IMG/VR virus record: IMGVR_UViG_3300037010_001275
Location: 1 to 64,000 of that record
Reading direction: 5' to 3' (one strand)
Length of the DNA: 64,000 nt
Source: a virus
Below, one piece after another: positions 10,967 to 62,905 of the stretch. Position 1 is the first letter of the stretch; every line of letters starts with the position of its first letter. The notes under the pieces were generated by a model. It was not told where the DNA came from, searched no databases, and saw only the letters and a list, made by a program, of their open reading frames with translations. The translations under genes were made by a program, and so were the position numbers.

Positions 10967-11107
10967 GCTGGCATCCTCAAAATTGGTTACTGAAAGCGCA
11001 ATGCTGTAACGCTTTCAAACCTATTATATATTAATGACGGGTGCGTAAAAATTCATCAACTCAATATTAATTCACCTATCGGAGACCGCCATCTGGCGGA
11101 AAAAGTA

Positions 11108-11596
11108 ATGAATATCATGCAGAGAAGATCTGTCGAGCTGCTCGACAGCGATCGCAAGCTGGAGCTTGTGAGGCGACGTGTTGAAATCGTCGTCGTCAGA
11201 GATAACAAGGTGCTCGTGGGCCGGTATCTCCGGCGAACTACAGGCGACACTTTCTATAGCCTGCCTGGAGGCGGGATCGAGATTGGAGAAACGCCGGAGC
11301 AAGCGGTCCACCGGGAACTGCTTGAGGAGATGGGCGTTGTCGTTAAGAACGTCCGCGACCTGAACCTTGTGATGAACTTTCCGCCGCCGTACTTCATCTC
11401 AAACTACAGATACGACAAGATCGTGACTGAGTGGTACTCAGCGTCTTATACCAAGGAGGATTTGTCGTCTTTCAACTCGGCCCGAGACGGAAGCATTGAG
11501 AAACTGTGGCTTAACAAGAAGACGGCTCTCGAATACATCAATGACAGCCTCTATGCGAGGGGGTCAATTCGCGCCATCGAGCGTGTTCTGAGATAA
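11108..11596 (+). CDS. NUDIX hydrolase
   Basis: Nudix box GGGIEIGETPEQAVHRELLEEMG. Confidence 0.9.
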   Translation: MNIMQRRSVELLDSDRKLELVRRRVEIVVVRDNKVLVGRYLRRTTGDTFYSLPGGGIEIGETPEQAVHRELLEEMGVVVKNVRDLNLVMNFPPPYFISNYRYDKIVTEWYSASYTKEDLSSFNSARDGSIEKLWLNKKTALEYINDSLYARGSIRAIERVLR

Positions 11597-11605
11597 AAAA
11601 AAAAG

Positions 11606-11633
11606 GAGCTACGGGGACGAACCCCCGTAGCTC
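11606..11633. terminator. Terminator hairpin between convergent genes
   Basis: GAGCTACGGGG/CCCCGTAGCTC with adjacent A run. Confidence 0.75.
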
Positions 11634-11642
11634 TAATTTATT

Positions 11643-11945
11643 TCATCCGAAGAACTGGTGCATCTCGCGCTTCAGTCTGCTCAATCCGCCGTGCACCATC
11701 ATGAACTTGGTGTCTGGCGACAGCCCTTCTTTCACCGCGTCTTGTACCTTGTGAGAGATGAACTTCGTCATCAGGACGATCACGTCGGCGACCTTCGTAA
11801 CTTCTTGAAATCGGGAGGAGTTGCAACTACTCGTAAAGAAACGAAGGTCCAGCTTGTCGCCGAACTCCTTCTCCAGCACATGCAGCTGGCTGCCCTTATT
11901 GAGTCCTATTACCGCTACACGTAGCTTTTTCTGGTTGGGCATCAC
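11643..11945 (-). CDS. DUF2325-like protein
   Basis: VAVIG...ADVIVLMTKFISH pattern typical of DUF2325. Confidence 0.6.
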   Translation of the reverse strand: MMPNQKKLRVAVIGLNKGSQLHVLEKEFGDKLDLRFFTSSCNSSRFQEVTKVADVIVLMTKFISHKVQDAVKEGLSPDTKFMMVHGGLSRLKREMHQFFG

Positions 11946-11978
11946 GTAAGTGGGACGGATTGACCCGCCCCACTCTCC

Positions 11979-15461: not shown

Positions 15462-15577
15462 GCATTCGCTCCTGCTCCGCGCTTCAAATATTTATTAATA
15501 ATATTATATATAAAAAGAACCGGAAGGTCCGAGAAACGTCTTAACAGCTTACATCAAGACGTTTCTATATTTGATTC

Positions 15578-19803: not shown

Positions 19804-19984
19804 AATTGATGGTCCTCTCAAAGGAATAGTGGTCTTTTAGCGGTGATGAAACACTCTCCATCACCAATTATATCATATATCTGTATTAGAAGCATCAAAA
19901 GTACCACGAAAATAGGTGTTCAAGTGTTCTTGAAAGCTGAACGCGTCATTAATTTATACTCTCTCTTCACATGGTGAGAAGAAA

Positions 19985-20188
19985 ATGTCGAGATTCTACC
20001 ATGACATATCGACTGCCTCGGCCACGGAGACACCAACGATGGGGGAAATCATGACCGAACTCAATAGAGACGTACTCGGCTATGGAACCAATGATGAGGC
20101 CCTGATGTCTCTAGCCCCTAGTGGGATTATTCCCGATGTCTACACACAGGTCGAGGTAAAAGAAAAGGTATTGTTACTCGCGGGATAA
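19985..20188 (+). CDS. Small hypothetical late protein
   Basis: Follows AACG-N6-TA motif at 19940. Confidence 0.45.
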   Translation: MSRFYHDISTASATETPTMGEIMTELNRDVLGYGTNDEALMSLAPSGIIPDVYTQVEVKEKVLLLAG

Positions 20189-20190
20189 CC

Positions 20191-20459
20191 ATGTCTGCCA
20201 AGAACATAGTTGTCGTCTATACGTACTCGTTCTGGAAGTCATCCCTCCGTTGGAAGGTAGTTCACGGATTGAATACCACGGATTTCGTAGTGAATATAAA
20301 GAATAAAGAAGGCGACACAGTTTTCACGAGCACTAAAACATTAAAGTAATTGATGGTATTGAATTTTGGGTCGAGTTCATGGAGGCAACTTCCGGGAAGA
20401 TCGCAGTCGCATTCGACCTTGTCCAGTCTATCAACGATTTCACGTCATATCAACTCTAA
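20191..20459 (+). pseudogene. Frameshifted small virion protein (HGLN domain)
   Basis: Frame 0 reads MSAK...WKVVHGLNTTDFVVNI...LK* (stop 20349). The -1 frame continues IKVIDGIEFWVEFMEATSGKIAVAF. Together they resemble the C-terminal domain of the next gene. Confidence 0.65.
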
Positions 20460-20471: not shown

Positions 20472-22580
20472 ATGACACATTTCCACAAGTTTCACGATAC
20501 TACTCAGGCGGCTCCCAATAGCCGGAACGAGAATGCTAGTTTCGAACGCCTTGCAACTGATCCAGTTCCCGTTTCCGCCGGTCGTATCTGGTTCAACACT
20601 ACTGACAAGGCGTTGAAGTATTCCTCGCTCGACACCAATGGTGCGGTTGTCGTCCGCACTATCAGTTCCGTCGAGGATATGCAGGCCACCATCTCCACTT
20701 TCCAGACCGCTCTATCCAATGAGGTTTCTCGCGCCCAATCCGCCGAATCTACTCTCACGACTAATTTGTCTGCTGAGGTTGCTCGTGCACAGGCCGCTGA
20801 CGCCGCTTTGGAAGCCGAGGCCCAAGTCCGTGCCGCTGCTGACTCCCAACTGACCAGCGATCTAGCTGTTGAAGTTTCTCGCGCTACGAATGCTGAGGCT
20901 CAGCTTCAGACCGCTCTGTCCAGCGAGGTCTCTCGTGCCACGAATGCTGAAGCTCAGCTTCAGACCGCTCTGTCCAGCGAGGTCTCTCGTGCCACGAATG
21001 CTGAAGCCGTTGAGACGCAGGCTCGTATCGATGCTGACACGGCTGCTGCCGCTGCTGCCGCTAATCAGCTTGCAACCGAAGCAGCCACTCGTCAGGCTGG
21101 GGATACCCGTCTTGATGGTCGCATTGACACTGTTCAAGCCGAGCTGGATTGCACTCAGGCTGGCACTGGTCTGAATGCTGATGGTACGTTCACTGCTCCG
21201 GAGAACACCACTTACCTTGGTGAAGTCGTTACTCTGAAGGCTGCTGGTGCCGCGCTAGATAAGGCTATCACAACTGAAGTCAGCCGCGCTCAGGCAGCTG
21301 AAGCCGCTCTGTCTTCTGCTCTGGCTGCCGAGGCTCAGCTCCGCACTGACGGCGACAACGCCCTGCAAGAGCAGATTGAAGCTTGGGTTAAAACCCAGAT
21401 CGCTCTCGGCGGCACGACTGACGAGAATCGCGTTGCTGCCGAAGCCGCTCTGCGTATCGCCAAGGACGACGCACTGCAAGCTGAGTTGGATCGCACTCAG
21501 GCTGCTGTCGGTCTCGACACTGATGGAAACTTGACTCCCATCACCGGCACGAACTATCTTGATGGTGTTGCGTCTGTCTTTGCCGGTGTCAACGCGCTTG
21601 ACGTGCAACTGAAGGTCGTCACTGACGGTCTGGCCGGCGAAGCTCTGGCCCGTCAGACTACCGATCAAGACTTCCTGAATCATCTGCAGGCTGAAACCAT
21701 TGCTCGCACTTCCGGTGACGTCGCTATCCTCCAAGGAATTGATTTCATGCGGGCTGGTGCTGGCTTAGAAGCTGATGGTTCCTACGCTGCTCCCACAGGC
21801 TCCAACTATCTGAATAGTGCTACCAGCCTGAAGGGTGCCGATTACATCCTTGACGCTGCTATCAAGGTTAACGCTGACGCGATCGCTGCTGAGAGCGCCG
21901 CTCGGGATGCTGCTGATGCTAACGAAGCCTCCCTACGCACTGCTGCTGATACTGCTCTTGACTCTCGTGTGGCCATAGTTGAAGGTCAGGTCAATGGTAA
22001 GATTGGTGACCTGTCCACGCTGGTAACCATTGACAAGAGCACGCTGATTGCCGCTATCAACGAGGTCAGCAGCAGTGCCGCTGCCGAAACAACCCGTGCC
22101 ACCGCTGCTGAAGCTGCTCTGACGTCTGACCTCGCCACAGAGGCTTCTCGTGCTCAGGCTGCTGAAGCCACTCTGACGTCTAATTTGGCTACTGAAGCTG
22201 CTGCTCGTTTGGCTGCTGAAGCCACTCTGACGTCTGACCTCGCCACAGAGGCTTCTCGTGCTCAGGCTGCTGAAGCCACTCTGACGTCTAATTTGGCTAC
22301 TGAAGCTTCTCGTGCTCAAGCTGCTGAAGCTGCCCTGAAGAGCACTATCAACGCTCAACAGTTCACATACATTTCTGATACAGCTAATCTGTCTCACACG
22401 ATCAATCACGGTCTGAACAGCGAACACATCCTGTTCAACATCATGGTTGAAGGTGCGGATGGCAAGTTCCGCACCGACACCGTTTCAGTGGAAGAGCTGG
22501 ACTTCAACTCCTTCCGCATCGAGCTGACTGAAGCTCACCGTGTGAAGGTTGCTGTTTGTGCGATGACAGCTTTGTCTTAG
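20472..22580 (+). CDS. Long coiled-coil fibre protein (tail or head fibre)
   Basis: 18-residue EVSRAQAAEA.L repeats, GL..DG...NYL repeats, C-terminal HGLN domain. Confidence 0.8.
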   Translation: MTHFHKFHDTTQAAPNSRNENASFERLATDPVPVSAGRIWFNTTDKALKYSSLDTNGAVVVRTISSVEDMQATISTFQTALSNEVSRAQSAESTLTTNLSAEVARAQAADAALEAEAQVRAAADSQLTSDLAVEVSRATNAEAQLQTALSSEVSRATNAEAQLQTALSSEVSRATNAEAVETQARIDADTAAAAAAANQLATEAATRQAGDTRLDGRIDTVQAELDCTQAGTGLNADGTFTAPENTTYLGEVVTLKAAGAALDKAITTEVSRAQAAEAALSSALAAEAQLRTDGDNALQEQIEAWVKTQIALGGTTDENRVAAEAALRIAKDDALQAELDRTQAAVGLDTDGNLTPITGTNYLDGVASVFAGVNALDVQLKVVTDGLAGEALARQTTDQDFLNHLQAETIARTSGDVAILQGIDFMRAGAGLEADGSYAAPTGSNYLNSATSLKGADYILDAAIKVNADAIAAESAARDAADANEASLRTAADTALDSRVAIVEGQVNGKIGDLSTLVTIDKSTLIAAINEVSSSAAAETTRATAAEAALTSDLATEASRAQAAEATLTSNLATEAAARLAAEATLTSDLATEASRAQAAEATLTSNLATEASRAQAAEAALKSTINAQQFTYISDTANLSHTINHGLNSEHILFNIMVEGADGKFRTDTVSVEELDFNSFRIELTEAHRVKVAVCAMTALS
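20871..21008 (+). repeat. 54-bp tandem repeat (~2.5 copies) in fibre gene
   Basis: Near-identical GCTCAGCTTCAGACCGCTCTGTCCAGCGAGGTCTCTCGTGCCACGAATGCTGAA units. Confidence 0.85.
22105..22335 (+). repeat. 54-bp tandem repeat (~4 copies, 108-bp higher-order unit)
   Basis: CTGACGTCTGACCTCGCCACAGAGGCTTCTCGTGCTCAGGCTGCTGAAGCCACT alternating with the ...TCTAATTTGGCTACT... variant. Confidence 0.85.
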
Positions 22581-22614
22581 TCAAAATAACTGGGGATGGG
22601 TCTATTGATCCATT

Positions 22615-22648
22615 CCCTAGTTATTTTAATGCCCTAGTTATTTTAATG
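22615..22648. repeat. 17-bp tandem duplication at the 3' arm of a terminator
   Basis: CCCTAGTTATTTTAATG x2. Confidence 0.85.
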
Positions 22649-22917
22649 CTAAGGCTCTTTCAGTCATTGGGGACTCTTCCATAGCAAGGGCATGGAGGAT
22701 CCGATAGAACCCAACTACATGGTCACATCCTTCACATGTTTCTGACGCGGCAATCCATTTGACTTCCGCTCAGAATGTGTTTCTGGATGCACTCGTCATC
22801 GGCGGTGATGTTGTTCTCAATGTTAATGTGGCGTTCTGATGAATTGGGAGGCAAAGATCAACCTTCACCTCTCTCAACTTATAAATAGTTTTCAAATGCT
22901 ATCAGCTGGAGCAATCT

Positions 22918-24375
22918 ATGCCGAAAATTTCTATTGTCCCATATCGTGTGGCAGACCAGAGCGACACAGCTGGCTTGGCACTAGCCAAATCTGGTGAGCT
23001 CTTCCTTGCTTCCAATACCGGGCGTACGCTTTATAAGAAGAACAGCGATGGCTCTCTGCTCGAGGGCCTGCTAGAAGAAACGAAATCTCGCCCTGCTGTC
23101 AAACCAGCATTAGTTGCGAATTTTGTCAATGCGAAATATCTGAATGCTATGTTCGATTACTCGCGCAGTAGCACTGGCACTTACTTCAGTAAGCAAGGAA
23201 ATCTCGTCACTGCAGCCATTGGCGAACCGCGCTTCGAGTACGACCCAGCCACCCGCATGAGTGAGGGTTTACTTTTAGAATCCTCCGCCATCAATTTCCT
23301 ATGCAATTCCGACAGTCTCATTGGTCCACAGTGGAGCCTTAGCAATTGCACGGAGATCGCAAATGCAACAGTATCGCCGACCGGCGATATAAATGCGACC
23401 AAGATTGTTGAGAGTGCAGATGCAACTGCAGTTTGGCATCAGCTTGGGCAGTCGTACAACATTACTTCATTACCGACCTCCCAGGTCTACATGACATCGT
23501 CCGTCTTTGCCAAGGCAGGAGAGCGTTCTACGCTTTTGCTCCAAATCACTGGTGGTGTCAACTCGCAAACCTCCGGCGTTCGAGCTATCTTCGATCTCGC
23601 AAATGGAACTGTGTCAACGCCTTTCCAGTATAGCGAAGTTACGACGACCATGACAAAGGCTACAATCACCCTCTGCAGTAACGGCTGGTACCGATGTGTG
23701 GTAAGTGCCATGCTTCCCGACGGCTCCAACCGGTTCAACTGGACAGTGATGCCAACGAAGTCCACATCATATCCTGACGGTCTCAACTATGTTGGTGATG
23801 GCGTAAGCGGTTTATACCTCTTCGGTGCTCAAGCTGAGTACTCCACTGGACCTACGTCATATATCAGTGCTGGAGATTCCCCCGTATCACGGTCTGCTGA
23901 CTATCTCGTCCTGAAGGACGGCAAAGCCGGTGCGATCCTTGGGGGTGAAATGACCTTCTTCGTTGAATTTGATCAAAACTTCTCCGAATCCGAATGGGGC
24001 CGCATTGTTTCTGTCACGGAAAACGACACGTCAGATTCTTGGCACAACGAATGGTGCCTTATGTACAACCAGACTGCGCAGATGCTTTACGTAGGTGGGC
24101 AGACCAATGGCGTCGCTCTAAATAACTCTGCAGGTGTCCCAATTGCAGCGAATATCATCCAGCGTGCATGCTTTGGGTACAGTAAGACTGCGTCATGTGG
24201 ATCCATCAACGGCTCCAATCCATTTACCAATGATGGATTGTCACTCAACGCAACTATCTTACGACTTGGCAATCGTCCTGGCGGCGATGAGGAACTTAGT
24301 TGCCATATTCGTCACTTCGTTATTTATCCCAGTCTGCTTGCAGCCTCCGAGATGAAGGCTCTTAGCACCCTGTAA
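22918..24375 (+). CDS. Fibre / receptor-binding protein with lectin-like (ConA/LamG-type) domain
   Basis: YSRSSTGTYF...EPRFEYDP...GLLLE, NGWYRC, GAQAE...PTSYI....SRSAD. Paralogue of 24482-26953. Confidence 0.75.
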   Translation: MPKISIVPYRVADQSDTAGLALAKSGELFLASNTGRTLYKKNSDGSLLEGLLEETKSRPAVKPALVANFVNAKYLNAMFDYSRSSTGTYFSKQGNLVTAAIGEPRFEYDPATRMSEGLLLESSAINFLCNSDSLIGPQWSLSNCTEIANATVSPTGDINATKIVESADATAVWHQLGQSYNITSLPTSQVYMTSSVFAKAGERSTLLLQITGGVNSQTSGVRAIFDLANGTVSTPFQYSEVTTTMTKATITLCSNGWYRCVVSAMLPDGSNRFNWTVMPTKSTSYPDGLNYVGDGVSGLYLFGAQAEYSTGPTSYISAGDSPVSRSADYLVLKDGKAGAILGGEMTFFVEFDQNFSESEWGRIVSVTENDTSDSWHNEWCLMYNQTAQMLYVGGQTNGVALNNSAGVPIAANIIQRACFGYSKTASCGSINGSNPFTNDGLSLNATILRLGNRPGGDEELSCHIRHFVIYPSLLAASEMKALSTL

Positions 24376-24481
24376 GGATGTGATCCGAGGGAATCCTCGG
24401 ATCACCCCTTCTGGCAGAAAGTGCCTATGATAACAATGATATAGTTACTCTCTTGCACCGTTCTAACCAAAGGATTTAATT

Positions 24482-32453: not shown

Positions 32454-32504
32454 AGCTCTCCTTAAATGGGGTATCGAATTGTTCGATGGTGAACTCAGTA
32501 GCCT

Positions 32505-32879: not shown

Positions 32880-32979
32880 GTCTACGCAAATGCTGGTGAT
32901 ATTTTGTATAGGCTAACTGGAAGTTGGGCTGTTTAAGATCGATTAACTATAGGATAACTGAGACAACTAATAAGGAAAC

Positions 32980-34677: not shown

Positions 34678-34838
34678 GAACGTGTCCTCGTTGTTTGGTT
34701 GTTGGATGGTGACTTGTAAGCAAACCGACGCTATCATTGGTCGTCAGCATTAAAAGAATATATCGGTGATTTATGAATAGATACCTCTCGCTCGTTATAA
34801 CTCATAAATAATCACCGAGCAATGTACTGTTGATCATT

Positions 34839-38150: not shown

Positions 38151-38162
38151 AACACATTACTA
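38151..38162 (+). promoter_or_regulatory. AR9-type late promoter AACA-N6-TA (representative of ~14 sites)
   Basis: AACA CATTAC TA. See findings for the full list. Confidence 0.75.
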
Positions 38163-38219: not shown

Positions 38220-39572
38220 ATGCTAAATGTAAAACCGAGAGACATCCAGAGCGAGTTCAATGAGCTGGCGCTTGTGACCAACTACGAGGCACTCGACAAC
38301 GATTTCCGCTTCACGGCGGACGGCGTCTTCTCCGAGCGGATCTTCGGGTTCATGACGAACGGCGTCGATCATTCCTGTGAGTGTGGAAAGTTTCAGGGTT
38401 CGTTCAACCTTGGACACACCTGTGATGCGTGCGGTACGAAGGTGACGTTCAGGGGGTTACAGTTAGCGCGGGAAGGCTGGGTCGACTTGCGCTATCCAGC
38501 CCTACACCCAGTCTTCTTCCGCTATTTACGGAAGATCATCGGAGCGACGGCGCTGAATGACATCCTAAACTACAAGATGAAGATCAATGTCAATGGAACT
38601 CCGGTGGAAGTCCCAATGGAGGCACCTTTCAAGGGGATCGGGATGTTCCGTTTCATTGAAAACCTCGACGACATCGCCCAACATTTCCTCGACAAAAAGA
38701 AGGACCCAGCCAAGTGGCGTGACTGGCAGTTCTTTAAGGAAAACGAGGAGATAGCATACATCGACAAGTTCCCAATTATCAATAGCCGCCTTCGCCCCGG
38801 CAACGTCATTAACGGCGAGTTTCAGTTCGACGAGATCAACAACCTGTACAATGCGATCATCAGGAACTCGGAGACACTCGGCAGCTTCACGGATATCGAG
38901 GCGACCGAGTCGAACATTCTGACGTTGGTCTATAAAAACCAAATGCTCATCAACGAGATCTTCGACACGATCCTCGAAACCCTCTCGAACAAAGAAGGTT
39001 TCATTCGGAACAGTCTGATCGGTTCCCGACTGAACCTCTCAGCCAGGAATGTGATTACGCCACTGTCTGGCGAGTACAAGATGAACGACTGCGTCGTGCC
39101 CTATAAGACAGCGATGGAGCTCATGAAGCCACTAATCCTTCGCAAGTTGCAAAAGATCAAACGCGTCCCGATCCAGCAGGCGCAGAAGATTTGGTTCGAG
39201 GCTACCCTTACGTACAATAAGCTCGTCCATGCAGTGATGCGTGATATCGCCAAGAACGAGAACGTCAAGATTCTTCTGAACCGTAACCCGACCATCAACG
39301 TCGGATCGATCCTGTTGCTCAACATCGCTGACGTAAAAGGCGACATGAGCGATGTCACACTGAGTATCAGTAATCTTGTGTTGCCGTTGCTTGGTGCCGA
39401 CTACGATGGTGACGTGCTCAACATCGTTCTTGTTGTCTCGAAGCGGTTCGTCGAGATGTTTGCGCCCTTCCAGCCGTCGAATTTCGTAATCAACTGTGAC
39501 AGTGGCGACTTCAATGGCAGCTTTAAGCCCTTCAAGGATATCGAGGTCGGGCTGCAGTCACTCTTGAACTAA
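38220..39572 (+). CDS. Phage multisubunit RNA polymerase beta' N-terminal subunit (AR9 gp270-like)
   Basis: DGVFSERIFG, zinc-binding CECG...CDAC, G.R.N.SAR.VI.P, LNRNPT, catalytic GADYDGD. Confidence 0.93.
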   Translation: MLNVKPRDIQSEFNELALVTNYEALDNDFRFTADGVFSERIFGFMTNGVDHSCECGKFQGSFNLGHTCDACGTKVTFRGLQLAREGWVDLRYPALHPVFFRYLRKIIGATALNDILNYKMKINVNGTPVEVPMEAPFKGIGMFRFIENLDDIAQHFLDKKKDPAKWRDWQFFKENEEIAYIDKFPIINSRLRPGNVINGEFQFDEINNLYNAIIRNSETLGSFTDIEATESNILTLVYKNQMLINEIFDTILETLSNKEGFIRNSLIGSRLNLSARNVITPLSGEYKMNDCVVPYKTAMELMKPLILRKLQKIKRVPIQQAQKIWFEATLTYNKLVHAVMRDIAKNENVKILLNRNPTINVGSILLLNIADVKGDMSDVTLSISNLVLPLLGADYDGDVLNIVLVVSKRFVEMFAPFQPSNFVINCDSGDFNGSFKPFKDIEVGLQSLLN

Positions 39573-40248: not shown

Positions 40249-40327
40249 ATTGGTTCCTTTGAATATACCATCTATTATTAAGTTACATCGCCAACAACTA
40301 GTTAACGTAATTTGACGAGGAAAAACG

Positions 40328-41623: not shown

Positions 41624-41679
41624 TTATATACCTAACAAATCTTTAGTTAATCTTTCCTGACCCTATAAAGGAAAAAGTC

Positions 41680-44340: not shown

Positions 44341-44452
44341 GATAATATGAACCGATGGGCCGATCAATGGTCTATCGGTTCATATTTATGCGGTACTAAG
44401 TGTTATTTTTAATGAGTAAACACCCAGTTAGATTAACAATTGCGAGGTTTCT

Positions 44453-47441: not shown

Positions 47442-48083
47442 CATATGTGTTCAGAAGTGTTCGCTACACACTCCCCGGATAATAAATCCAGCTGCATGTC
47501 ACCATGCAGATCAGACTATATCTTCTCTCCTTTATCGGAGAGCTCCCTATTTCCATCGCCAATGGCTTGCGATGTACTCTACTTGATTCCGCTATTACTA
47601 GCGTTCTTTCGATAGTCGTTGAACGTTCCACTGACACTTACCACGAATAATTAATTGATATATGTTTCCAAGTTTTTCTTTGCTGGATATTCCGCACTGT
47701 TTACTCTGATAATTCCATCAGATTCATATCCTGTTGGGTATTATTCACAGTCTTCCAGCAACCAGCTTATTACAGATCTCGTGAACCTGCTTTTCTGTTG
47801 GAAGTACATTTTTGCATGCCGCGCCTCTTGGTCTTAAATTTATATCAACTACGTGCTATAAAAATTCTTAGTAGGCATAACCCACTCCAAGTTGGATACT
47901 TCATTGCATCGTTTGATGTCATTGATGTGATTCACTTGGTAAGAATCGTCAAATATAATTCGTGATTTGTTTAGCTAAAGGCTATCTCCATTTCTGTGGT
48001 GAGCCAGTGGCTTCGCTGCTGATTGTCTCAAAGAGAGTTTCCAGCAGTTAAAGGAGTTTTACTTCGGCAGGCAATGAACTTTT
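47442..48083 (-). ncRNA. Group I self-splicing intron (642 nt)
   Basis: 5' exon ends in U. P1 TTCGGT/GCCGAA with U.G pair. P AACTGCTGGAAA (48049-48038), Q AATCAGCAG (48024-48016), R GTTCAACGACTA (47624-47613), S AAGATATAGTC (47524-47514). Terminal G at 47442. Confidence 0.93.
47638..47960 (-). pseudogene. Decayed HNH homing endonuclease in the intron P6 loop
   Basis: Fragments QVNHINDIKRCNEVSNLEWV, TEKQVHEICNKL and TVRNIQQRKTWKHIS, broken by stops and frameshifts. No N-terminus. Confidence 0.85.
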
Positions 48084-49814
48084 ACCGAATCGGATTGGAC
48101 TGTTGTTGTACGGTGCGGTGCCCTTCTTGTACATCTCATTTGACTTAAATGGGGCGTTCAGCAGACTTACCTGACCGGCGGATCGAGCAGAGAACTTGCC
48201 GATAGCCTCATGACGAAGCTTGATGAAGTACATGGATCCAAGAACGAGCGGCTGCTCGATCCCGATGAACTTCAACTTTTTCACGCCGAACCTGTCGTAC
48301 AGCTTTAGCATCTTGACTGGGTCAGCGTTCTCGAAGAAGGGCGGCTGATGGATTAACAAGCCGTCTTCACGCACACTCCGCACGAACTCAGAGATGGCCT
48401 TGACGTCGCCATCAAGGGTTGCCTTCAAGTAGTCCGCTTGTCCGCTACCGAGGATATTGAAAAAGTCCAAGATATCATCATACAGCGCGATGTTACCTTC
48501 CTTGTCATCTGGATGCCTCTTGACAATCTGGTCGGCGATAAACGTCAGCTCATGTTCATACAGCTGCGCCACGTTCATGCGCCCGACAACGCCTAGCGGG
48601 TTCAGTACGACATCCGGGATGTCACCATCCTCGGTTCGGGGCATTTGGTCATCGGGCAGGATCTTCGAAATCACCCCCTTGTTGCCGTAACGTCCAGTGA
48701 TCTTTGATCCCACTTTCAGCGGGACGGTCTCGCGGATCTTAAAGCGCAGGATTGTTCCCTCAAACTCGCTCTTATCGTAGCTGAACTTCTTACCACAGAG
48801 GTAATCCGTCGCCTTTTGCAGCAGGAAGCCACAGTTGTCGCGGAGTGTCATCCCCTCATCTCGGAAGTATTCGATAATCTCCTTGATCTCTGTGAATAAC
48901 TCCTTTCGGGTTTTCAGCAGGGCTGCGATCGGCGCGTTGTGGGGCTGCGCCAGCTCGTCATCCGACAGGTTGGAGAAGACCTCGATCGACTCGACCACAC
49001 CATTAAAGAAGAAGAGCGTATCATTAACGTAATCGATCTGGCGGTCATTCTCCTTAAAGTCTGTCAGGACTGTCGAGTAGCTGATCCGGCGACGGGCGCA
49101 CAGAATGCCATCCTTGACGTACTCACCGATTTCCGGAAAAGGTTTGTATTCGTTCCGAGTGCCATACATGTTGACCAGAACATCGTTATTGTTGAGGGAT
49201 ACCACGGCCTCGTGGACGGCGGTATGTGAGAGCTTCTTTGCCCCGCTCTCACTTATGATGATACCATCCTCAAACGTCAGGCCGTCCTTTGCGATGAAGG
49301 CTGCCTTCAGGTTGACGCCATAGCGCAGATTCAGGTTGTCATCGTACATCGGGTTACGAGCAAGGAGCGTTCCCTCGGGAAGGTCCGTACCAGGTTCGAC
49401 ATCCGGGAGCTTGTACTCGTTTAAGAAACCATACGACTCAGTAAGCCGTACACACGAATTGTACGTCACAACGTCAACCGACCCGTCCTCATAACTGAAA
49501 AACAAGTATCGCTCGTTATCACCGTACTTGACTTCACCAAGGAGCTGCGCAGGTGCTTTCAGAGAGGTATAACCCATCCCCTGTGAGAACTTTCCAACCT
49601 GATTCTCGAAGCGAGTAAACACCCTCGGGATTTCAGCGTTGTTCAGCGTGAGGAACTGCGCGACGTGTGAGATGAACATGTTAAGACGACCACCGTCGCA
49701 CTTGTTCACATTCGGGGTGAGTAGGTCCTCCCCAAGGAAATAGTGTTTCGGACGGCCATCCTCACGGATAAACTTACTCGCCACCACGGTTTTCTTAGCC
49801 TTCTTTTCCTTCAT
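48084..49814 (-). CDS. RNA polymerase beta C-terminal subunit (AR9 gp089-like), exon 1
   Basis: EDGIIISES, GSKITGRYGNKGVISKI, PDVVLNPLGV..RMN..QL.E, Y.IKL.H...K.SAR. Spliced product about 670 aa. Confidence 0.93.
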
Positions 49815-50118: not shown

Positions 50119-50171
50119 GATTGGACTCCCACGGGTAATGGTGCGCGAACGCACCATACCCATTATATATC

Positions 50172-54949: not shown

Positions 54950-56440
54950 TTAGTAACGCTCCAAGAAAGATAATATATCCTGGATAATCGTTCTCTGGTT
55001 GGCCTCAGTATCAACGTGCGGCTGTAAGTCCTCCTCGTTCTCGTCAAACGGATTGACACAGGTGAAGTCGGTATTCATGATGTCACCGATAAAGCTGACG
55101 AGCATCTTGTTTTCCGCGAGCTTAGCCTTCACGAGTGGGAAACGGCTCAGCAGGTTGCGGTATGACCGCGACTGTATGACTTCGCCGACCAGCTTGCCCC
55201 GTTTGAAGTTCTTCTGGTTCTCCTTCGGGGCGACATCAGCTGAGATCATGCCTGCGAGGCACTTAAACCCTTTGTCCAGCAGGAACCTCCGTGTGATCAT
55301 CAGGAGCCAGATATACTCCTCCCGGTTGCACAGCTGAATGTTCAACTTGTCCTTACTGTTGACATAGTAGTTGATGATCTTCATCTGCACCATGTTGGGA
55401 GAGATGACCTCCATAAAGTGATCGTGCTCCTCTTCGGAAAAGTAGATCTTGTAACGGTCGATGAAGCTCCGGATTGCTTCCTTCTCGATGATGTAATTCA
55501 TCTCATTAGCGCTGACCAGCCGCATCTCCATCCGCGTGAACGGGTTCACGCTGTTCTCGGTTCCCTCGGTACGAATCTGCGAGATCGGCTTAAAGGTGAT
55601 CTTGATGTTCTGGATAAAAGTGTAGTTGATTTGGCCTTTGATCACGACATGTAGAAAGGACACCACCGACCTGTTGACATCGAGCTTCGGGATCGTGTCA
55701 CGAACGATCTTGCGGAACAGGTCGAGTGCGAGGATCGGTGCGGAGACCGTGATGTTTTTAAGGTACTCCCAAATCACCTTGTCGCTGTATAGTGTGTTCT
55801 CGACGTTGCTGGTAATGAACCGCTGAATCTTACCTGGCAGGTCGACATCATCGCCGTTCTCATCGATGCTGAAGACCTTGAAGATCTCGGTGAAGACCCT
55901 GATTGTGAGGTCCTGCTCCTTTTTCATATCCATCCGCTCCATGTAGAGACAGATGAGCGGAACGACGAGACGACACATGTACGATACACAGATCAGCAAC
56001 TTGGCGTAAGAGTCCTTGAATTGGAGTTCCTCTTCACCACGCTGTGTCTCGATTGAGATCGTGTACTGGCTGTCTACGTAGTCCCGAATGAAGTGCTGTA
56101 GGGTTTCATTGGTAATGATCTCATTCGTGATAATACCAATGAGTTTCTGCTCACTCGCATCACGGTTGTCGATGTTACCTTCTTCACCCTCCTGATCGCA
56201 GATATGCTCAATGCCCTCGATCAGAAGGCGGGAGTGGAGGTAGCTCTCGATGAAGTCCGGGTACTCTCGAAAGACGTGCTTGAGGTCCTCGACGATGCGC
56301 TCCATAATGCTCTGGTAGACGCGTTTCTTATACAGCGGGAAGAAGTTGTGGGTCATGTCATCGTCCATGTCGAAGAGATCATGGAACCGAATATTGAACC
56401 CCTTCTGTTCAATTTCAAAAAGTTTGTTGACGTGTGCCAT
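54950..56440 (-). CDS. Sigma-like promoter-specificity subunit of nvRNAP (AR9 gp226-like)
   Basis: Blocks ELQ..D, TLYSDKVIWEYLKN and PKL..N.SVVSFLHVVIK match recalled AR9 gp226 (TKYSDVVIWTYLKN, PKLKHNSSVISYLDVVIK). Lies two genes from a chaperonin, like gp226/gp228. Confidence 0.8.
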   Translation of the reverse strand: MAHVNKLFEIEQKGFNIRFHDLFDMDDDMTHNFFPLYKKRVYQSIMERIVEDLKHVFREYPDFIESYLHSRLLIEGIEHICDQEGEEGNIDNRDASEQKLIGIITNEIITNETLQHFIRDYVDSQYTISIETQRGEEELQFKDSYAKLLICVSYMCRLVVPLICLYMERMDMKKEQDLTIRVFTEIFKVFSIDENGDDVDLPGKIQRFITSNVENTLYSDKVIWEYLKNITVSAPILALDLFRKIVRDTIPKLDVNRSVVSFLHVVIKGQINYTFIQNIKITFKPISQIRTEGTENSVNPFTRMEMRLVSANEMNYIIEKEAIRSFIDRYKIYFSEEEHDHFMEVISPNMVQMKIINYYVNSKDKLNIQLCNREEYIWLLMITRRFLLDKGFKCLAGMISADVAPKENQKNFKRGKLVGEVIQSRSYRNLLSRFPLVKAKLAENKMLVSFIGDIMNTDFTCVNPFDENEEDLQPHVDTEANQRTIIQDILSFLERY

Positions 56441-57186: not shown

Positions 57187-57300
57187 ATTGCGTGTCTCTC
57201 GATGCGTGAGCTCGCCATTTTATCACGTCCCTCTCCTTTTTGCAAATGAAAAAGAGTAGACGACTCCTGTGATTGGAGAAGTCTACTCTTTTATCATATA

Positions 57301-58998
57301 TCAACAGCTTACGAATTGGTTGATGCTGATCAGCATACCCATGATGGACACTGACGCCTTGAGGATCTGGATATCGGTGTCGATTGGAGCGAGCACGGTA
57401 GTCTCATCAAGGTTTTCGAATGCTCCGGTTATCACGTTGAAGATCCGATCAGTCTCCTCGATGATTTCGTCACGCATCTTCTCTCCGCGCCAGTCGTATT
57501 CAGGCGACTTAGTCATGATGCAGAAGTAGGTGTCGAAGTAGACGCGACGAAGCTGGAGGAAGATTGTTTTCACGAACTCCTTGCTGAACTGATTGAAGAC
57601 GTAGTCTCCTTCCCAAATGGTATCGAAGCGGTTGCAGAGACGAGTCATCGCGAAGTACAGGTTGACATTACCGCCAAATCCGTAGCCCTTTGCAAGGGCT
57701 GACTTACAGGCCAGCACAGCGTCTTCGACGAGGAAGCGGCGTGCCTTCTTCTCTTCCTCGGTAATGCCACCGACAAGGATCTTCACGGAGACGCCAGATA
57801 GCTTCGAGAGGCGCAGGCGGATTGCGCCGCGCTTCGAAGGCAGGTTGTTCGGCGTCTCATCATACTCCTTCTCAAGCTGCTGAACACGCTCATTGTAGAA
57901 GTCAGTGCCGCGAACCATGCCATCGCCGGACATAAACACGGTCTTTGTACCAAAAAACTCGACCGACTTGCAGGCTCCGAGCTGCTCTGGCTTGAAGGTA
58001 TTCGGGTCACGGATGATGTCAGAGTCAAGGTAGATCGCCGCGTCAAGAAACTCGTCGTGGTAAGCTTCAAGTGACATATCACCGGCGCGGATTAGAAGGA
58101 TCTTGTTGTTACCCTTTAGGAAATCAGACAAACACTCATTGACGGTGTCCTCGTGGGTCTGCTCCACGATTGCCACAATAGCGCGGTCCGGGTTGGCCTT
58201 CTGGATCTCCTTCAGGTTTTCATAGTGCGGCGGGAAGAACTCGTAGCTCATGTATACAAGCGGCTCCTTCACTGCCAGCGTCGAACGACCGACCTGATTG
58301 AAGTACAGGTTGTGGATCGGACCGCGATCGAAGGTGAATCCGTAGCGGATGCTGTGGGTCAGCGGGACGCTGGAGTCGCGGGGATCCTCCTCGATCCTGA
58401 CGTCGGAGAGGAAGTTGAGCTTCTGAAAGATGCCAGCAATGTAATCGCCGATCTTCAAGTCGTTGTTGTTGGAGATGCTGGCGATCGACGTCAGCACACG
58501 CTGCTTGTTGTTGCCGTCGATTTTACGGGCATTGCTCTCAAGATCATCGACAAGATAACCAACGATCCGCTCAAGGATATCAACCAGCTGCTTACGGCTG
58601 CACATGCCTGAGTTACGGAGCGGAGCAAGGTACTCGTACATGAACGATGCTGAAAGCACGGCGCTCGTGGAGCCATCGCCGACGGTTTTGACGAGATTAT
58701 ACGAAACCCGCTTGATCAAGTCATGCAGCGCTTTGTCCTGCGAGTTAGTGAAGCGCAGGTTCTCGAGAATGGTGTAACCGTCCTTTGTGACGGTCGGGGT
58801 TGAGCCGAGTCGCTCGATTAGCGTGTTGGATCCGAGCGGACCATAGCTCTTGGCGAGGACGCCGCAAAGCGCTGCAAGGAACTTGACGGTGTCATTGTAG
58901 AATTGCTGGTCGTCCTTGACAATCCCCTCGAAACGGCTAAGCTCCTCCGTCATTACGATCTCATCGGCTTTTTTCTTTTTGAAAAGATTCTTCAACAT
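57301..58998 (-). CDS. groEL: Phage GroEL-like chaperonin
   Basis: YGP.G, VTKDG.TI, VGDGSTSA, SNND..IG, EDAV.A..SA...G...GG. Confidence 0.9.
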   Translation of the reverse strand: MLKNLFKKKKADEIVMTEELSRFEGIVKDDQQFYNDTVKFLAALCGVLAKSYGPLGSNTLIERLGSTPTVTKDGYTILENLRFTNSQDKALHDLIKRVSYNLVKTVGDGSTSAVLSASFMYEYLAPLRNSGMCSRKQLVDILERIVGYLVDDLESNARKIDGNNKQRVLTSIASISNNNDLKIGDYIAGIFQKLNFLSDVRIEEDPRDSSVPLTHSIRYGFTFDRGPIHNLYFNQVGRSTLAVKEPLVYMSYEFFPPHYENLKEIQKANPDRAIVAIVEQTHEDTVNECLSDFLKGNNKILLIRAGDMSLEAYHDEFLDAAIYLDSDIIRDPNTFKPEQLGACKSVEFFGTKTVFMSGDGMVRGTDFYNERVQQLEKEYDETPNNLPSKRGAIRLRLSKLSGVSVKILVGGITEEEKKARRFLVEDAVLACKSALAKGYGFGGNVNLYFAMTRLCNRFDTIWEGDYVFNQFSKEFVKTIFLQLRRVYFDTYFCIMTKSPEYDWRGEKMRDEIIEETDRIFNVITGAFENLDETTVLAPIDTDIQILKASVSIMGMLISINQFVSC

Positions 58999-59022: not shown

Positions 59023-59305
59023 CTATTTCTTTTTCTGAGCGGTAGCGGCCTGCGACTTGATTCGCTCCATCTCCCGCTCCTCGATTTTCCTCTTGTCTTC
59101 GAGAAACTTCGCCCGACCATTGTACAGGTCAGTTAGCAAGGGAAGCTCGATCGTCATAACGTCTTCAAGGGTTAGCTGGCCTTTGAAGATGTCCAGTGTC
59201 GCTGCGATCTGGTACATAACCTGATCGAGCGACCGTTGGACTACGTTACCGGGGCGAATCTCGATGAGCTTAATCAGGCCCTTACCATACTTAGAAAAAG
59301 GGTTT
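59023..59305 (-). CDS. Small chaperone partner ORF, probably reached by -1 frameshift
   Basis: Frame is open from AAC CCT TTT (59305) through the ATG at 59217 to the stop. Confidence 0.65.
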
Positions 59306-60455
59306 CAGTCATGTCGACCACGATGTTCTTAATCTCAGCACCGCAGTGACGGCAGATGGCGTCGGGCAACTTGTATTCGACCTTGTATTTGTCCATCTTC
59401 TCTTTGATTGCCTTGTCGAGGAACTTGCGATCCTCTGATGGGATATCGACGATGGCGCGTAGCTTGTCCTCGATAGTCTCAAGCTGGATGTACTCGACAT
59501 CACCCTGCGCGAAAGCGTGGATGTGCGGGATGTATAGCTCTTCGACGTACTTCAAGTACGTAAAGATCTCTGGCTCGTAGCCCTTGAAGGACTCAGCACG
59601 CTGCAGGGACTTCAGGTAGTCGTGCAGAGTCGGAGTGCCAATATCGGCGATGATCTTAGTCTGCGGTAGGATCACGCGATCCTTCATATTGACCACGGAG
59701 TGCTTAACCAGTTCCTCGGGTGTGTAGTTCTTGGACAGGATGTCCTGAATGTACGCACCAGTGGCGGCCTCGTCCTTGGCCTGAATCAGCAGTTCCTTGG
59801 AAATGCGGGCCTTGTTCTCCTTACCGCACTTTGGACAGGAAACATCATAGTCAGTCTCGTTCGGAAAGGTAGCGCAGTAGATGCCATAGATTAGGGTCTC
59901 GAAGTCGTTTTCAGCAGTAACCTTCAGCCAGTCATCGAAGCGGATCTTGCCGAGTGAGCCATTGACCATGTGTGTATAGACGAAGTTGAAGAGCTTCATG
60001 TTCTGCTCTTTTTCCGTCCCGGTGAACTTACGCACCTTAATCATGTCGTCGTTGTTCAGCGACCGGAACGCGGCACGATAACCGGACTGCAGTGCGATAA
60101 CGTCGTAGGAAGGCTTCAGAAACAGGGTCTCGAGCTCTTGGAAGACGCCGAGTGGGTTGGGGCTTTTGACGATTTTGATCTTACTCAGATCGACCTGAAC
60201 GTTGCTCAGGACCTTGTCACGCAGTGCCTCGCGAGAGACAGTATCGGCTTGCGGAGCCTCGGTGGCGGGCTGAACAACAGTTTCGTTCTGCTGGAGCTCG
60301 CCAGCTTCGTCGCGGGTAACTTGGGACGATGCCGTGGTTGAAGTGGTCTGTTCAACAGCGGCATTGGCGACCTCGGCGGGGCTTTGCTCAGGTTGCTGAG
60401 TCTGCCCGTTGATCATCTTGCTGAGATCTTCCATAGAGTTGATTTCCATTGCCAT
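59274..60455 (-). CDS. Baseplate hub / tail assembly chaperone (T4 gp26-like)
   Basis: CPKCG and CRHCG pairs, PTL.D. Adjacent to a gp25-like gene. Confidence 0.65.
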   Translation of the reverse strand: MAMEINSMEDLSKMINGQTQQPEQSPAEVANAAVEQTTSTTASSQVTRDEAGELQQNETVVQPATEAPQADTVSREALRDKVLSNVQVDLSKIKIVKSPNPLGVFQELETLFLKPSYDVIALQSGYRAAFRSLNNDDMIKVRKFTGTEKEQNMKLFNFVYTHMVNGSLGKIRFDDWLKVTAENDFETLIYGIYCATFPNETDYDVSCPKCGKENKARISKELLIQAKDEAATGAYIQDILSKNYTPEELVKHSVVNMKDRVILPQTKIIADIGTPTLHDYLKSLQRAESFKGYEPEIFTYLKYVEELYIPHIHAFAQGDVEYIQLETIEDKLRAIVDIPSEDRKFLDKAIKEKMDKYKVEYKLPDAICRHCGAEIKNIVVDMTETLFLSMVRA

Positions 60456-60613
60456 GTGCTTATCCTTTCGTGATTGGAAACGGTAATGTGACGGATGAAT
60501 GTCAGGGACTAAAGCGCTGTTTCACCTTTGAGCACTAGCAAAACTTCGGGCTGTAACTGGAACCTTGAACGCGAAGAAAACACCCTAAGCCCGAAAGGAG
60601 CTTAGGGTGTCTC

Positions 60614-61039: not shown

Positions 61040-61048
61040 GATTTACAC

Positions 61049-61513
61049 TCAGGTGTTATCGCCAATGCGGTAGACGTTGTCGCCATTCTCGCCACCAGAA
61101 GAGCCACCGTTCTTTTGGCTCTCGAGGTGGTCGACGATGTTAAAGGACTGGGCTTTGGAGAGCAGGACCTTGAGGATACCGATGTGCTCCTGCATGTACT
61201 TCAGCTGGTCGCGCTTAGCAGTATCTTCCTTGCAACTTATACACTTGGTCTTAGTGAACTGCTTCTTCTCGAGCTCCTCCTCGGCGGCGCGAAGCGCGTC
61301 GCGGATACGCTCGATGACTTCAGTCTTCTCCTCATGTGTGTCGATGTTGACGACACGCTTGGCGAGGTAGTCGATCTCCTTAATGGAATAGCCCTTCAGC
61401 TTGCGGGCTGCCCACGACACGAAGCTCTCGTAGGAGAACTCCTCATTCATGATCTGCTGCTCCTGACGGGTGAGGAGAGCCTCTCTGTCCAGAATGATGT
61501 GTTTATCGAACAT
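61049..61513 (-). CDS. Hypothetical protein
   Basis: ORF in late operon. Confidence 0.6.
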   Translation of the reverse strand: MFDKHIILDREALLTRQEQQIMNEEFSYESFVSWAARKLKGYSIKEIDYLAKRVVNIDTHEEKTEVIERIRDALRAAEEELEKKQFTKTKCISCKEDTAKRDQLKYMQEHIGILKVLLSKAQSFNIVDHLESQKNGGSSGGENGDNVYRIGDNT

Positions 61514-61522
61514 GGTTGGTTC

Positions 61523-62014
61523 CTATGTGGTTGTGAGACGCAGGGTCGTCAAGCAACTGTCGTTGCGGACGAAGCCCATGCCTCGGATGTTGGTCAGAAG
61601 AATCTCGGAGAGCGGCCTTTTGTGGATGTCTACGAGACCGGAGGTCCCGAGGCGGTAGCCAGCATCGTATGCCTCGTCCGTGAGTTCCAGAAGCCCAAAA
61701 ATACTTGGATCCTTCGACTGGAACCTCTCGAGCAGCGGGATCGCCACGAACTCGCCCTTCGGGATGACGTGCCTGTTGAGGATGGTCCGCATCAGACTCT
61801 TCGAGAACGAGACGTGCAAATCCATCTCACGCTGAGTGTGGACCTCAGTCTTCCATTCGAGGAAGTTGCCACGGAAGAGACGATCCTTCATCTGATAATC
61901 AAGATCTACGACAAGTGCAATATCGTTTGTCGTGAAGATGCGTTCATCCAGGTCAAGCGTCAGGGTCTCCCGCTGAAAGAGGTCAAACACCTCCGGGTAA
62001 CTGAAAATTCTCAT
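61523..62014 (-). CDS. Hypothetical protein
   Basis: ORF in late operon. Confidence 0.55.
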   Translation of the reverse strand: MRIFSYPEVFDLFQRETLTLDLDERIFTTNDIALVVDLDYQMKDRLFRGNFLEWKTEVHTQREMDLHVSFSKSLMRTILNRHVIPKGEFVAIPLLERFQSKDPSIFGLLELTDEAYDAGYRLGTSGLVDIHKRPLSEILLTNIRGMGFVRNDSCLTTLRLTTT

Positions 62015-62044
62015 TGTGCTTTCCTTTTTCTTTTATTCTTTATG

Positions 62045-62758
62045 TCACGCCTCCAGCACCTTCTCTCTAAAATAGGCATTGAATGGCGTATAAACCTTAT
62101 CATTCACCTGAACGAAATCGAACCCCTCTCGGCGAGTGGCTTCAGCCTTCAGCTTCTCGAGTCTCTCGTCGCGTTTCTGGTAGTGCTCATTACCGCCCTT
62201 GATCTCGATGATCAGGTTCAGCGACGGGATGAAGAAGTCTGGAAGGTAAAACCTTGTCTTATCGCCGTCTTTATAGTAGATTGTTGGCGGCTCGGCAATG
62301 TATTCTCTCTTGAAGTGGTACACAGTCTCGAGGAAGTGGAGAAAGTGCGCCTCGTAGTTTCCCGTGACCGGAGTCTCAGACCCGTCCAGCCACTTGTAGG
62401 TCTGCGTGATGGAGCGCGAAGCCAGCATTTTCTTCTGATGCTCCGGCTCGTCTGTGATGTATACCTTACCGTACTTTTTCAACATCCGCGCCTTGAACTC
62501 CTCGCGGTACTGTTGTTTCTCGGTCTCCCCTGTGAACCGTTCGTAACGCTCAGTGACGGGGTTCCAGGCGGTCGGCTTACCGGAGATGACAGATCGTCCT
62601 TGCGTCTTGCCGTACTTGACGAAGAACCAGAACCGGGCCGGATCATCCCAACCGAGGTTCTCCATCTCACCCTTCTTGGTCTCAGCGATGTAGGCGTAGA
62701 GGGCTTGTTTCGACAGGAAAGTTTTCCCCTCATACTTGAATATCTTTTTCGCTGCCAT
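62045..62758 (-). CDS. PD-(D/E)xK nuclease (TnsA-N / T4 gp4-like)
   Basis: YE..F, YLPDFFIPSLNLIIEIKG. Confidence 0.75.
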   Translation of the reverse strand: MAAKKIFKYEGKTFLSKQALYAYIAETKKGEMENLGWDDPARFWFFVKYGKTQGRSVISGKPTAWNPVTERYERFTGETEKQQYREEFKARMLKKYGKVYITDEPEHQKKMLASRSITQTYKWLDGSETPVTGNYEAHFLHFLETVYHFKREYIAEPPTIYYKDGDKTRFYLPDFFIPSLNLIIEIKGGNEHYQKRDERLEKLKAEATRREGFDFVQVNDKVYTPFNAYFREKVLEA

Positions 62759-62905
62759 AACTTTTCCTATGATTAACGATCATGACGTTAGCACCGAGAT
62801 CTTCCATACTACTATTTTGTTACATAATGTAATTGGAAAACATAAGAATAATTCTAAGGATTTTGATGATAGATCCTTCCAACAGTTTCCAATCGAGGTT
62901 TCATC

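Follow-up and report, generated by a model that had tools for sequence, protein, structure and literature searches.

Which RNA polymerase, if any, reads the short motif that recurs ahead of genes in a fragment of an uncultured virus? The question is raised by the first 64 kb of a 94,984-bp IMG/VR virus record (IMGVR_UViG_3300037010_001275; labelled G000), the whole stretch of DNA that we analysed and that we refer to as the window. An earlier note on this DNA had described about 14 copies of AAC[A/T/G]-N6-TA as late promoters that define the regulon of a phage-encoded non-virion RNA polymerase (nvRNAP). We found that these sites are very probably late promoters of the type known from Bacillus phage AR9, and would form the regulon of an nvRNAP containing a gp226-type subunit in a jumbo phage related to phiR1-37 and AR9.

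The record has a CheckV completeness of ~37% and a G+C content (GC) of ~50%, and is part of an uncultured jumbo phage with a genome of roughly 260 kb whose relatives include the Yersinia phage phiR1-37 and the Bacillus phage AR9. It encodes an NAD (nicotinamide adenine dinucleotide)-dependent ligase, gyrA, gyrB, a Dda-like helicase, a primase, a UvsX-like recombinase and GroEL; genes for tail and virion proteins and for split multisubunit RNA polymerases are also present. The protein resembling the C-terminal part of the nvRNAP β subunit (βC) is 44% identical to its counterpart in phiR1-37 and 38% identical to those of the Bacillus phages AR9 and PBS1. phiR1-37, AR9 and PBS1 are jumbo phages with deoxyuridine DNA. 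Related IMG/VR contigs were reached via the gp226 homolog and gyrA: G001 is a fragment of 97,885 bp whose proteins are roughly 65% identical to those of the record, and G002 is a 263,413-bp genome with direct terminal repeats, rated 100% complete, whose proteins are roughly 50% identical. The genomes of phiR1-37 and AR9 were compared in full, with AR9 serving as the positive control. A megablast search of 20 kb of the window against a phage collection gave no match, and scans of viral contigs with proteins of 431 and 485 amino acids (aa) found no relatives. A look-up of RNA runs containing this sequence listed none.

In AR9 and PBS1, late promoters have the form 5'-A(-11)ACA-N6-T-A/G(+1) and are read by a five-subunit nvRNAP that contains gp226 (PMC5312081, PMC5449584, PMC9209446). 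This promoter class is characterised by a start at the final A/G that follows phage protein synthesis and by a need for deoxyuridine at template positions -11 and -10. Differential RNA sequencing (dRNA-seq) of AR9 yielded 94 late transcription start sites (TSSs) with AACA-N6-T-A/G(+1), and the purified AR9 nvRNAP, which reads the template strand, requires the motif in vitro. We found that all 14 coordinates given in the earlier note carry AAC[A/T/G]-N6-TA on the strand assigned to them, 19-58 nucleotides (nt) ahead of a start codon. Counts were then taken in upstream regions, defined as the intergenic DNA of up to 100 nt before each called start codon on the coding strand (44 regions and 3,871 nt in the window), and expected values were obtained from dinucleotide-preserving shuffles of these regions (1000 for the window). 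AAC[ATG]N6TA occurred 17 times in the upstream regions of the window, compared with 3.31±1.73 expected and a shuffle maximum of 9; AACA-N6-TA accounted for 11 of these occurrences (1.23±1.08 expected). Across the upstream regions of the whole 95-kb contig, AACA-N6-TA was present 16-17 times, with about 1.8 expected. The count of AACA-N6-TA over the entire window was at chance (23 vs 21.3±4.6); as the upstream count is enriched, the signal is positional.

The spacing and the flanks of the motif were similarly specific. In the upstream regions of the contig, the N5 and N7 spacings occurred once and not at all, respectively, which does not exceed background; AAC[AT]N6TA[AG]T, an extended form, was found 15 times upstream, compared with just two occurrences in 80 kb of coding sequence. 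When gapped dyads were enumerated without bias, AACA-N6-TAGT (8 vs 0.17) ranked directly behind the Shine-Dalgarno sequence. Two columns that had played no part in the selection of sites were also conserved: among 22 aligned sites, +2 was a purine in 21 and +3 was T in 15, and when three genomes were pooled, +2 was G in 59% and A in 28%. The leaders had a median length of 34 nt, two pairs of sites stood back to back between divergent genes (40284/40293 and 62821/62839), and several sites directly followed terminator hairpins. With respect to strand, the upstream regions of the window held 17 forward and 6 reverse matches, the reverse ones not being separated from regions between divergent genes. 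On the antisense strand of genes, AACA-/AACT-N6-TA was depleted relative to synonymous-codon shuffles (2 vs 9.8, 0 vs 4.9 and 6 vs 19.3 in G000, G001 and G002, respectively); because the N7 control was also depleted, we did not count this as evidence.

We scanned the tolerance of the motif in silico by counting each of the 18 single-base variants of AACA-N6-TA in the upstream regions of the contig and in their shuffles. The consensus stood out at z = 12.5. The only variant above background was AACT-N6-TA (6 vs 1.5, z = 4.0); the other 17, comprising AACG, AACC, all changes at the first three positions and all changes at TA, were at background. Consistent with this, position 4 was A in 17 of the 22 aligned sites and T in the remaining 5, with no G or C. 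Position 4 is thus A or T, since AACT is enriched and AACG and AACC are not. The earlier proposal that this position accepts A, T or G holds for A and T; the sole G case is the AACG at 19940, which lies outside the 22 aligned sites and belongs to an unenriched class. In the five-genome comparison, AACT-N6-TA was enriched only in G000 and G001, and AACA-N6-TG only in AR9 and phiR1-37 (in the latter 7 vs 2.4 upstream).

The motif was also enriched upstream of genes in every relative. AACA-N6-TA occurred 15 times in G001 (1.4 expected), 38 times in G002 (5.6), 50 times in phiR1-37 (9.7±2.9), where the enrichment was N6-specific, and 62 times in AR9 (9.6); neighbouring spacings were unenriched across the genomes, except for N8 in AR9 (27 vs 9.6). 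We then compared orthologs, defined as reciprocal best hits. The G001 ortholog was preceded by the motif for 14 of 15 motif-bearing genes but for only 1 of 16 motif-less genes (Fisher 8.6e-7), and the corresponding fractions for G002 were 10/14 and 2/14 (p = 0.006). At orthologous promoters AACA and TA were fixed, and the N6 spacer had diverged. Retention tested against phiR1-37 and AR9 alone was not significant (Fisher p = 1 and 0.15), owing to small numbers, rearranged operons and an AT-rich background; in phiR1-37 the motif was retained at 6 of 13 testable orthologs. Together, these results leave little room for the view that AT-rich intergenic DNA yields the motif by chance, with near-start matches that would always number about a dozen: the whole-window count, the greater AT-richness of intergenic over coding DNA and the accidental look of the AACG variant and of the match at 32483(-) speak for it, but the shuffles never reach the observed count, the altered spacings and 17 of 18 variants lie at background, unselected flanks are conserved and the motif recurs at orthologous positions in diverged relatives, so that we rejected it, on the shuffles and the ortholog test, as extraordinarily improbable.

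The genes served by the motif correspond to genes with mapped late promoters in AR9. AR9 orthologs of genes directly behind motifs in our record include g012, g052, g213, g233, g251 and g264, all with mapped late TSSs, and those of genes inside motif-headed operons include g078, g232, g242, g260 and g281, likewise with late TSSs. Among them, g264 is annotated as a virion-RNA polymerase subunit and g233 is the ortholog of a PD-(D/E)xK-type endonuclease; for the late TSSs of g259 and g260, the AR9 annotation gives virion structural proteins as the products of the coding sequences behind them, and the phiR1-37 orthologs g270-272 and g285 carry the annotation structural protein.

Three genes of the corresponding polymerase lie in the window: those for βC, for the N-terminal part of β' (β'N) and for a σ-like promoter-specificity subunit homologous to AR9 gp226 over its full length. 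The βC gene is the reciprocal best hit of AR9 73219-75216, annotated as a non-virion RNA polymerase subunit; its open reading frame (ORF) of 588 aa compares with 665 aa for the AR9 chain, and the same strand carries a 94-aa ORF about 600 nt further downstream (47160-49814(-) region). In the AR9 structure, the pocket for the -10 uracil is formed by gp226 V206 and I207 together with R363 and K375 of the N-terminal part of β (βN), Y210 stacks on the -9 guanine, and contacts with protein are fewest at the -8 base. The 2.1bis helix of the gp226 homolog reads YSDkVIWeYLKN here (YSDKVIWEYLKN; AR9 YSDVVIWTYLKN), and the equivalents of V206, I207 and Y210 are kept. Across all five phages, V206 and Y210 have conserved equivalents, and that of I207 is I or M; in the βN of G002 and phiR1-37, R363 is kept and K375 is replaced by R. 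ThyA, ThyX and dUTPase are missing from G002, AR9 and phiR1-37 alike, which is compatible with, and no proof of, deoxyuridine DNA in these relatives.

A second motif, ATATATAAT, of the form ATATAT[A/G/C]AT and usually followed by N6-G, is probably the early promoter read by the virion RNA polymerase. The exact word ATATATAA occurred in 10, 6 and 17 copies in G000, G001 and G002, respectively; all 33 were intergenic and usually followed by T-N6-G. With up to one mismatch, the early-type motif was found 16 times in the window (6.7±2.7 expected). We found that it precedes all three nvRNAP genes of the window, at 38063(+) for β'N, at 50162(-) for βC and at 57293(-) for the operon with the gp226-like gene, and that an AACA motif stands ahead of the ortholog of virion-RNA polymerase βC (75327-76706 of the contig, outside the window). 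An early motif at the nvRNAP genes and an AACA motif at virion-RNA polymerase βC together reproduce the two-polymerase logic of AR9. The AR9 early promoter is AAATATATATTAT-N6-G; the two systems are thus alike in having an AT-rich early motif of the ...TAT-N6-G form and differ in its sequence, ATATATAAT here. A third AT-rich intergenic word, (g)GTATATTATTTT, occurs outside the window, at contig positions 68530(-), 68906(-), 87998(-), 79768(-) and 94241(+), and may be a further early-promoter variant.

Similarity to AR9 extends from the promoter to the genes that it serves. The AACA core, the strict N6 spacing, T(-1)A(+1), the sense orientation and the leaders of ~20-60 nt are shared, here seen in DNA sequence; the leader lengths and the back-to-back divergent promoter pairs resemble those of AR9 Table S3; orthologous genes are served; and both phages encode homologous βC, β'N and gp226 subunits, the 2.1bis helix being conserved. 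The differences are modest. GC is 50% here and 28% in AR9, as a result of which the motif stands out by computation alone, and it was clear against background in relatives of 50-55% GC. Only A stands at +1 here, whereas AR9 uses A or G; roughly one site in four here has a conserved T at -8, whereas substitutions at -8 kill AR9 promoters in vitro; and a preference for a purine at +2 and T at +3 (+2R/+3T) is added here. The closest cultured relative, phiR1-37, shares the RNA polymerase set, a gp226 homolog, structural genes that are orthologous and syntenic in blocks, and the upstream enrichment of AACA-N6-TA, and differs in a genome of 32.5% GC. Papers on these phages state that a late consensus was not found for phiR1-37 and that computation cannot predict the late promoters of such phages; a search of the paper collection available to us found no contrary report. 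A more distant comparison is phiKZ, whose nvRNAP late promoters are T(-3)ATG(+1) (PMC7598289): there, too, a multisubunit nvRNAP with a fifth subunit of the gp68/gp226 family transcribes late genes independently of the host, but the promoter is unrelated and lacks an AACA element, thymine is present in the DNA, and the phage builds a nucleus.

If the motif is not accidental, it might nonetheless act in RNA, for instance as part of the 5' leader or where transcripts are processed or cleaved, with transcription starting elsewhere. Such a role would fit the location of sites within what would be leaders and the position of the conserved +2R/+3T beyond the proposed start. In AR9, however, dRNA-seq places 5' ends at the identical motif before orthologs, primer extension confirmed selected ones of these ends, and the purified nvRNAP transcribes from the motif in vitro in a promoter-specific manner (PMC5312081, PMC5449584). 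Sites directly behind terminator hairpins and divergent pairs also fit promoters better, and we consider an RNA-level role highly improbable.

Alternatively, the sites could be promoters that are served not by a gp226-type nvRNAP but by the host RNA polymerase together with a σ factor of host or phage origin, or that need a separate activator. In the 39-59 kb part of the window, σ70-like matches were indeed in modest excess (31 vs 18±4.6), but they were at chance in 19-39 kb and lay mostly inside genes, and we rejected host σ70-type promoters as an explanation. In addition, the motif is unlike the σ70 -35/-10 elements, and GACA-N6-TA was unenriched; the phage has its own two-polymerase system, whose specificity subunit keeps the promoter-contacting residues of AR9; and the motif is used in Bacillus phages and enriched in a Yersinia phage, the hosts of which share no such σ specificity. 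A host-type promoter is therefore very unlikely to account for the sites.

A reading that fares better retains the nvRNAP and widens its targets: the motif would be a general post-early promoter for middle, late and continuously expressed genes, with AACT perhaps forming a separate strength or timing group. Conserved sites before gyrA and nvRNAP β'N favour it, as does the large "continuously expressed" class of AR9, whose genes have both promoter types. The AACT sites (34799, 40284, 32945, 22876 and 11058, with the orthologous sites in G001 and G002) offer further support. At orthologs, T at position 4 stays T (before 34830 in three genomes, and before 39631 and 32983 in two or three), and A is favoured at -2 (11/16, compared with 22/64 in the AACA class); the AACT sub-class may represent a distinct strength or timing class. 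Set against this, most sites precede virion or lysis genes and the AACT sample is small, and we regard the general post-early promoter as possible but doubtful.

Our preferred reading, that the sites are AR9-type late promoters, is supported by their enrichment, their conservation at orthologs, the mapped late TSSs of AR9 and the presence of nvRNAP and gp226 genes. Several observations weigh against it. Some transcription units have no motif, including those that start at 27360, 28943 and 33868(-). AACA-N6-TG is unenriched here, though AR9 uses TG, and T occupies -8 in 5 of the 22 sites although substitutions at -8 abolish transcription of AR9 promoters in vitro (PMC5449584). The motif precedes non-structural genes (gyrA, the helicase and nvRNAP β'N). 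Finally, genes for βN and for the C-terminal part of β' are missing from this fragment, though no search aimed at the latter was made. With respect to the motif-less start at 28943, a strong terminator (28845-28868) is followed in G001 by AACAAGCAATTAGT ahead of the ortholog of 28943-30781, and no recognisable motif is present here (28829-28942), which suggests promoter loss or replacement ahead of this gene.

These results also redraw the regulon outlined in the earlier note. Its list omitted three conserved sites, 1747(-), 10264(-) and 20337(+), as well as the match at 32483(-), which is probably due to chance because it is unconserved and has no +2/+3 extension. The description of the regulon as structural and lysis genes fits most sites, but gyrA and nvRNAP β'N also carry the motif, and the regulon is accordingly wider than "structural or lysis". 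The late class had been extended to NUDIX, permuted NlpC/P60 and PD-(D/E)xK genes. Of these, the PD-(D/E)xK assignment is well supported, since a late TSS has been mapped for its AR9 counterpart g233; the site before the NUDIX gene, not positionally conserved in G001, is a weaker candidate for a late promoter; and no NlpC/P60 domain, permuted or otherwise, was matched by Pfam or PHROG among the candidate genes next to the motif.

Promoter-like sites and RNA polymerase genes of the window. Minus-strand sites are referred to in the text by their upper coordinate; distances are to the start codon.
Feature	Sequence	Position	Strand	Gene served or match	Relatives and remarks
Late-type	AACATTTTTGTA	1736..1747	-	62 nt before 936-1673 gene	G001 ortholog AACATTTCTGTA, similar distance
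Late-type	AACAGTTTGGTA(ATC)	10253..10264	-	37 nt before gyrA (7771-10215)	Aligns with AACAGCAATCTA(GTC) in G001; absent in G002, phiR1-37, AR9
AACT class, weaker candidate	AACTCAATATTA(ATT)	11058..11069	+	38 nt before NUDIX gene 11108-11596 (domain 6e-16)	No positional counterpart in G001, where early-type ATATATAA sits
Variant (AACG)	AACGCGTCATTA(ATT)	19940..19951	+	33 nt before small ORF 19985-20188	Pairs in G001 with canonical AACAGCTAATTA(ATT), also given as AACAGCTAATTAATT; downstream ORF conserved
Late-type	AACATTAAAGTA(ATT)	20337..20348	+	123 nt before 702-aa gene 20472-22580	Aligns with AACATCAGAATA(GTT) in G001
AACT class	AACTTATAAATA(GTT)	22876..22887	+	30 nt before tail protein gene 22918-24375 (phrog_5939)	Preceded by terminator 22592-22617
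Late-type	AACAATGATATA(GTT)	24432..24443	+	38 nt before tail protein gene 24482-26953	
Doubtful	AACAATTCGATA(CCC)	32472..32483	-	18 nt before Dda-like helicase gene 31248-32453	No partner in G001, G002, phiR1-37, AR9; no +2R/+3T extension
AACT class	AACTATAGGATA	32945..32956	+	26 nt before 32983-33783 (baseplate or tail-like)	G001 AACTAGAGGATA; phiR1-37 AACTAGTATATA before g285, structural protein; AR9 ortholog g012, mapped late TSS
AACT class	AACTCATAAATA(ATC)	34799..34810	+	19 nt before operon 34830-36897	AACT retained in G001 (AACTGGTATATA) and G002 (AACTTCTCTATA)
Late-type	AACACATTACTA(ATT)	38151..38162	+	57 nt before nvRNAP β'N gene	AACAGCATGTTA at aligned place in G001
AACT class	AACTTAATAATA(GAT)	40273..40284	-	24 nt before 39631-40248	Back-to-back with 40293; G001 AACTTTTTAATA at 21 nt
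Late-type	AACAACTAGTTA	40293..40304	+	23 nt before 40328-41623	G001 AACAACGAAATA and G002 AACAACAGAATA, both at 24 nt; orthologs phiR1-37 g272 (structural protein) and AR9 g251 (mapped late TSS)
Late-type	AACAAATCTTTA(GTT)	41634..41645	+	34 nt before virion structural genes 41680-43359, 43372-44340	Motif at 34-35 nt in G001 and G002; phiR1-37 orthologs g271, g270, structural proteins
Late-type	AACACCCAGTTA(GAT)	44419..44430	+	22 nt before 44453-44899	Conserved hairpin directly 5'; aligns with AACAGCGCCTTA(GAA) in G001
Late-type	AACAGCGCTTTA(GTC)	60510..60521	-	54 nt before 59274-60455	Retained in L003, G001/L004, L006, G002/L007 with differing spacers (GTCACT, TTGGAT, TGGGGT); in four lineages AACAGCGCTTTAG, AACAGTCACTTAG, AACATTGGATTAG, AACATGGGGTTAG, 49-55 nt from start
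Late-type	AACAAAATAGTA(GTA)	62810..62821	-	51 nt before PD-(D/E)xK-type endonuclease gene 62045-62758; operon includes baseplate-wedge ortholog	Motif at ortholog in G001, G002, phiR1-37, AR9; AR9 g233 late TSS mapped at 200832
Late-type	AACATAAGAATA(ATT)	62839..62850	+	55 nt before spanin-like pair 62906-63701, then virion structural gene from 63688	Identical in L003 and G001; AR9 ortholog of 1094-aa gene behind this site is g260, mapped late TSS
nvRNAP β'N		38220..39572	+	PDB 7s00_d, E 6e-68	
nvRNAP βC		48048..49814	-	PDB 7s00_C, E 1.9e-111	
σ-like nvRNAP promoter-specificity subunit, AR9 gp226 homolog		54950..56440	-	PDB 7s01_A, E 2.8e-36, full length	
Early-type	ATATATGAT	57293..57301	-	Heads operon holding gp226-like gene	
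Other early-type copies		11023-11031(-), 15503-15511(-), 19872-19880(-), 32550-32558(-) ATATATAAT			
Other early-type copies		38063-38071(+), 38100-38108(-), 50162-50170(-)			

Two features of the neighbouring genes may be recorded. A 260-aa protein (46149-46931(+)) matches Acb3, a Pfam family of inhibitors of the cyclic-oligonucleotide-based anti-phage signalling system (CBASS), at 2e-67, and the adjoining gene encodes a 139-aa protein (45531-45950(+)) with a RyR domain (3e-13). The Acb3-like and RyR-domain genes are likely an anti-defence cluster; neither has an AACA or ATATATAA motif within the 100 nt upstream. On the minus strand, a GroEL-like chaperonin gene (phrog_5725, 7e-83; 57301-58998(-)) shares a long block with that of the gp226 homolog.

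For this phage we infer the position of the TSS, late timing, reading of the template strand and uracil dependence, and these features can be assembled into the following scheme. The injected virion RNA polymerase would transcribe early genes, among them those for the σ-like gp226 homolog and for the βC and β'N subunits of nvRNAP, from ATATATAAT-type promoters. Once assembled, the five-subunit nvRNAP would recognise 5'-AAC(A/t)-N6-T-A(+1)-R-T-3' via the complementary template strand (3'-UUGU-5' in AR9) and start at the final A, producing leaders of about 20-60 nt. Its predicted targets include the genes for tail, baseplate and other virion proteins, a virion-RNA polymerase subunit, the spanin-like pair and the PD-(D/E)xK-type endonuclease. 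By analogy with AR9, expression throughout infection is expected of genes with both motifs; nvRNAP β'N is placed in this "continuously expressed" class because an early-type (38063-38071) and a late-type (38151) motif precede it, and gyrA possibly belongs there as well.

The promoter and polymerase system is already known, and the window provides an additional example of it with modest lineage-specific variation. Because the motif can be detected clade-wide, including in phiR1-37, sequence data make it possible to annotate the nvRNAP regulons of jumbo phages that have not been cultured, to follow the two-polymerase programme of early and late genes through the clade and to single out candidate uracil-DNA phages. 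The natural variants of the promoter, with T at -8 or a strict A at +1 for instance, could likewise be compared with the solved structure of the AR9 holoenzyme. We tentatively raise a broader idea, which we consider conceivable rather than probable: AACA-N6-TA may be the common late promoter of the whole clade of uracil-DNA jumbo phages, including phiR1-37 and GC-balanced uncultured members, with a shift in the GC-balanced lineage (a conserved T at -8 with A at -2, strict +1 A, and +2R/+3T). If this is true, deoxyuridine genomes and nvRNAP regulons could be predicted from metagenomic sequence alone, by the motif in combination with the conserved valine in the gp226 helix.

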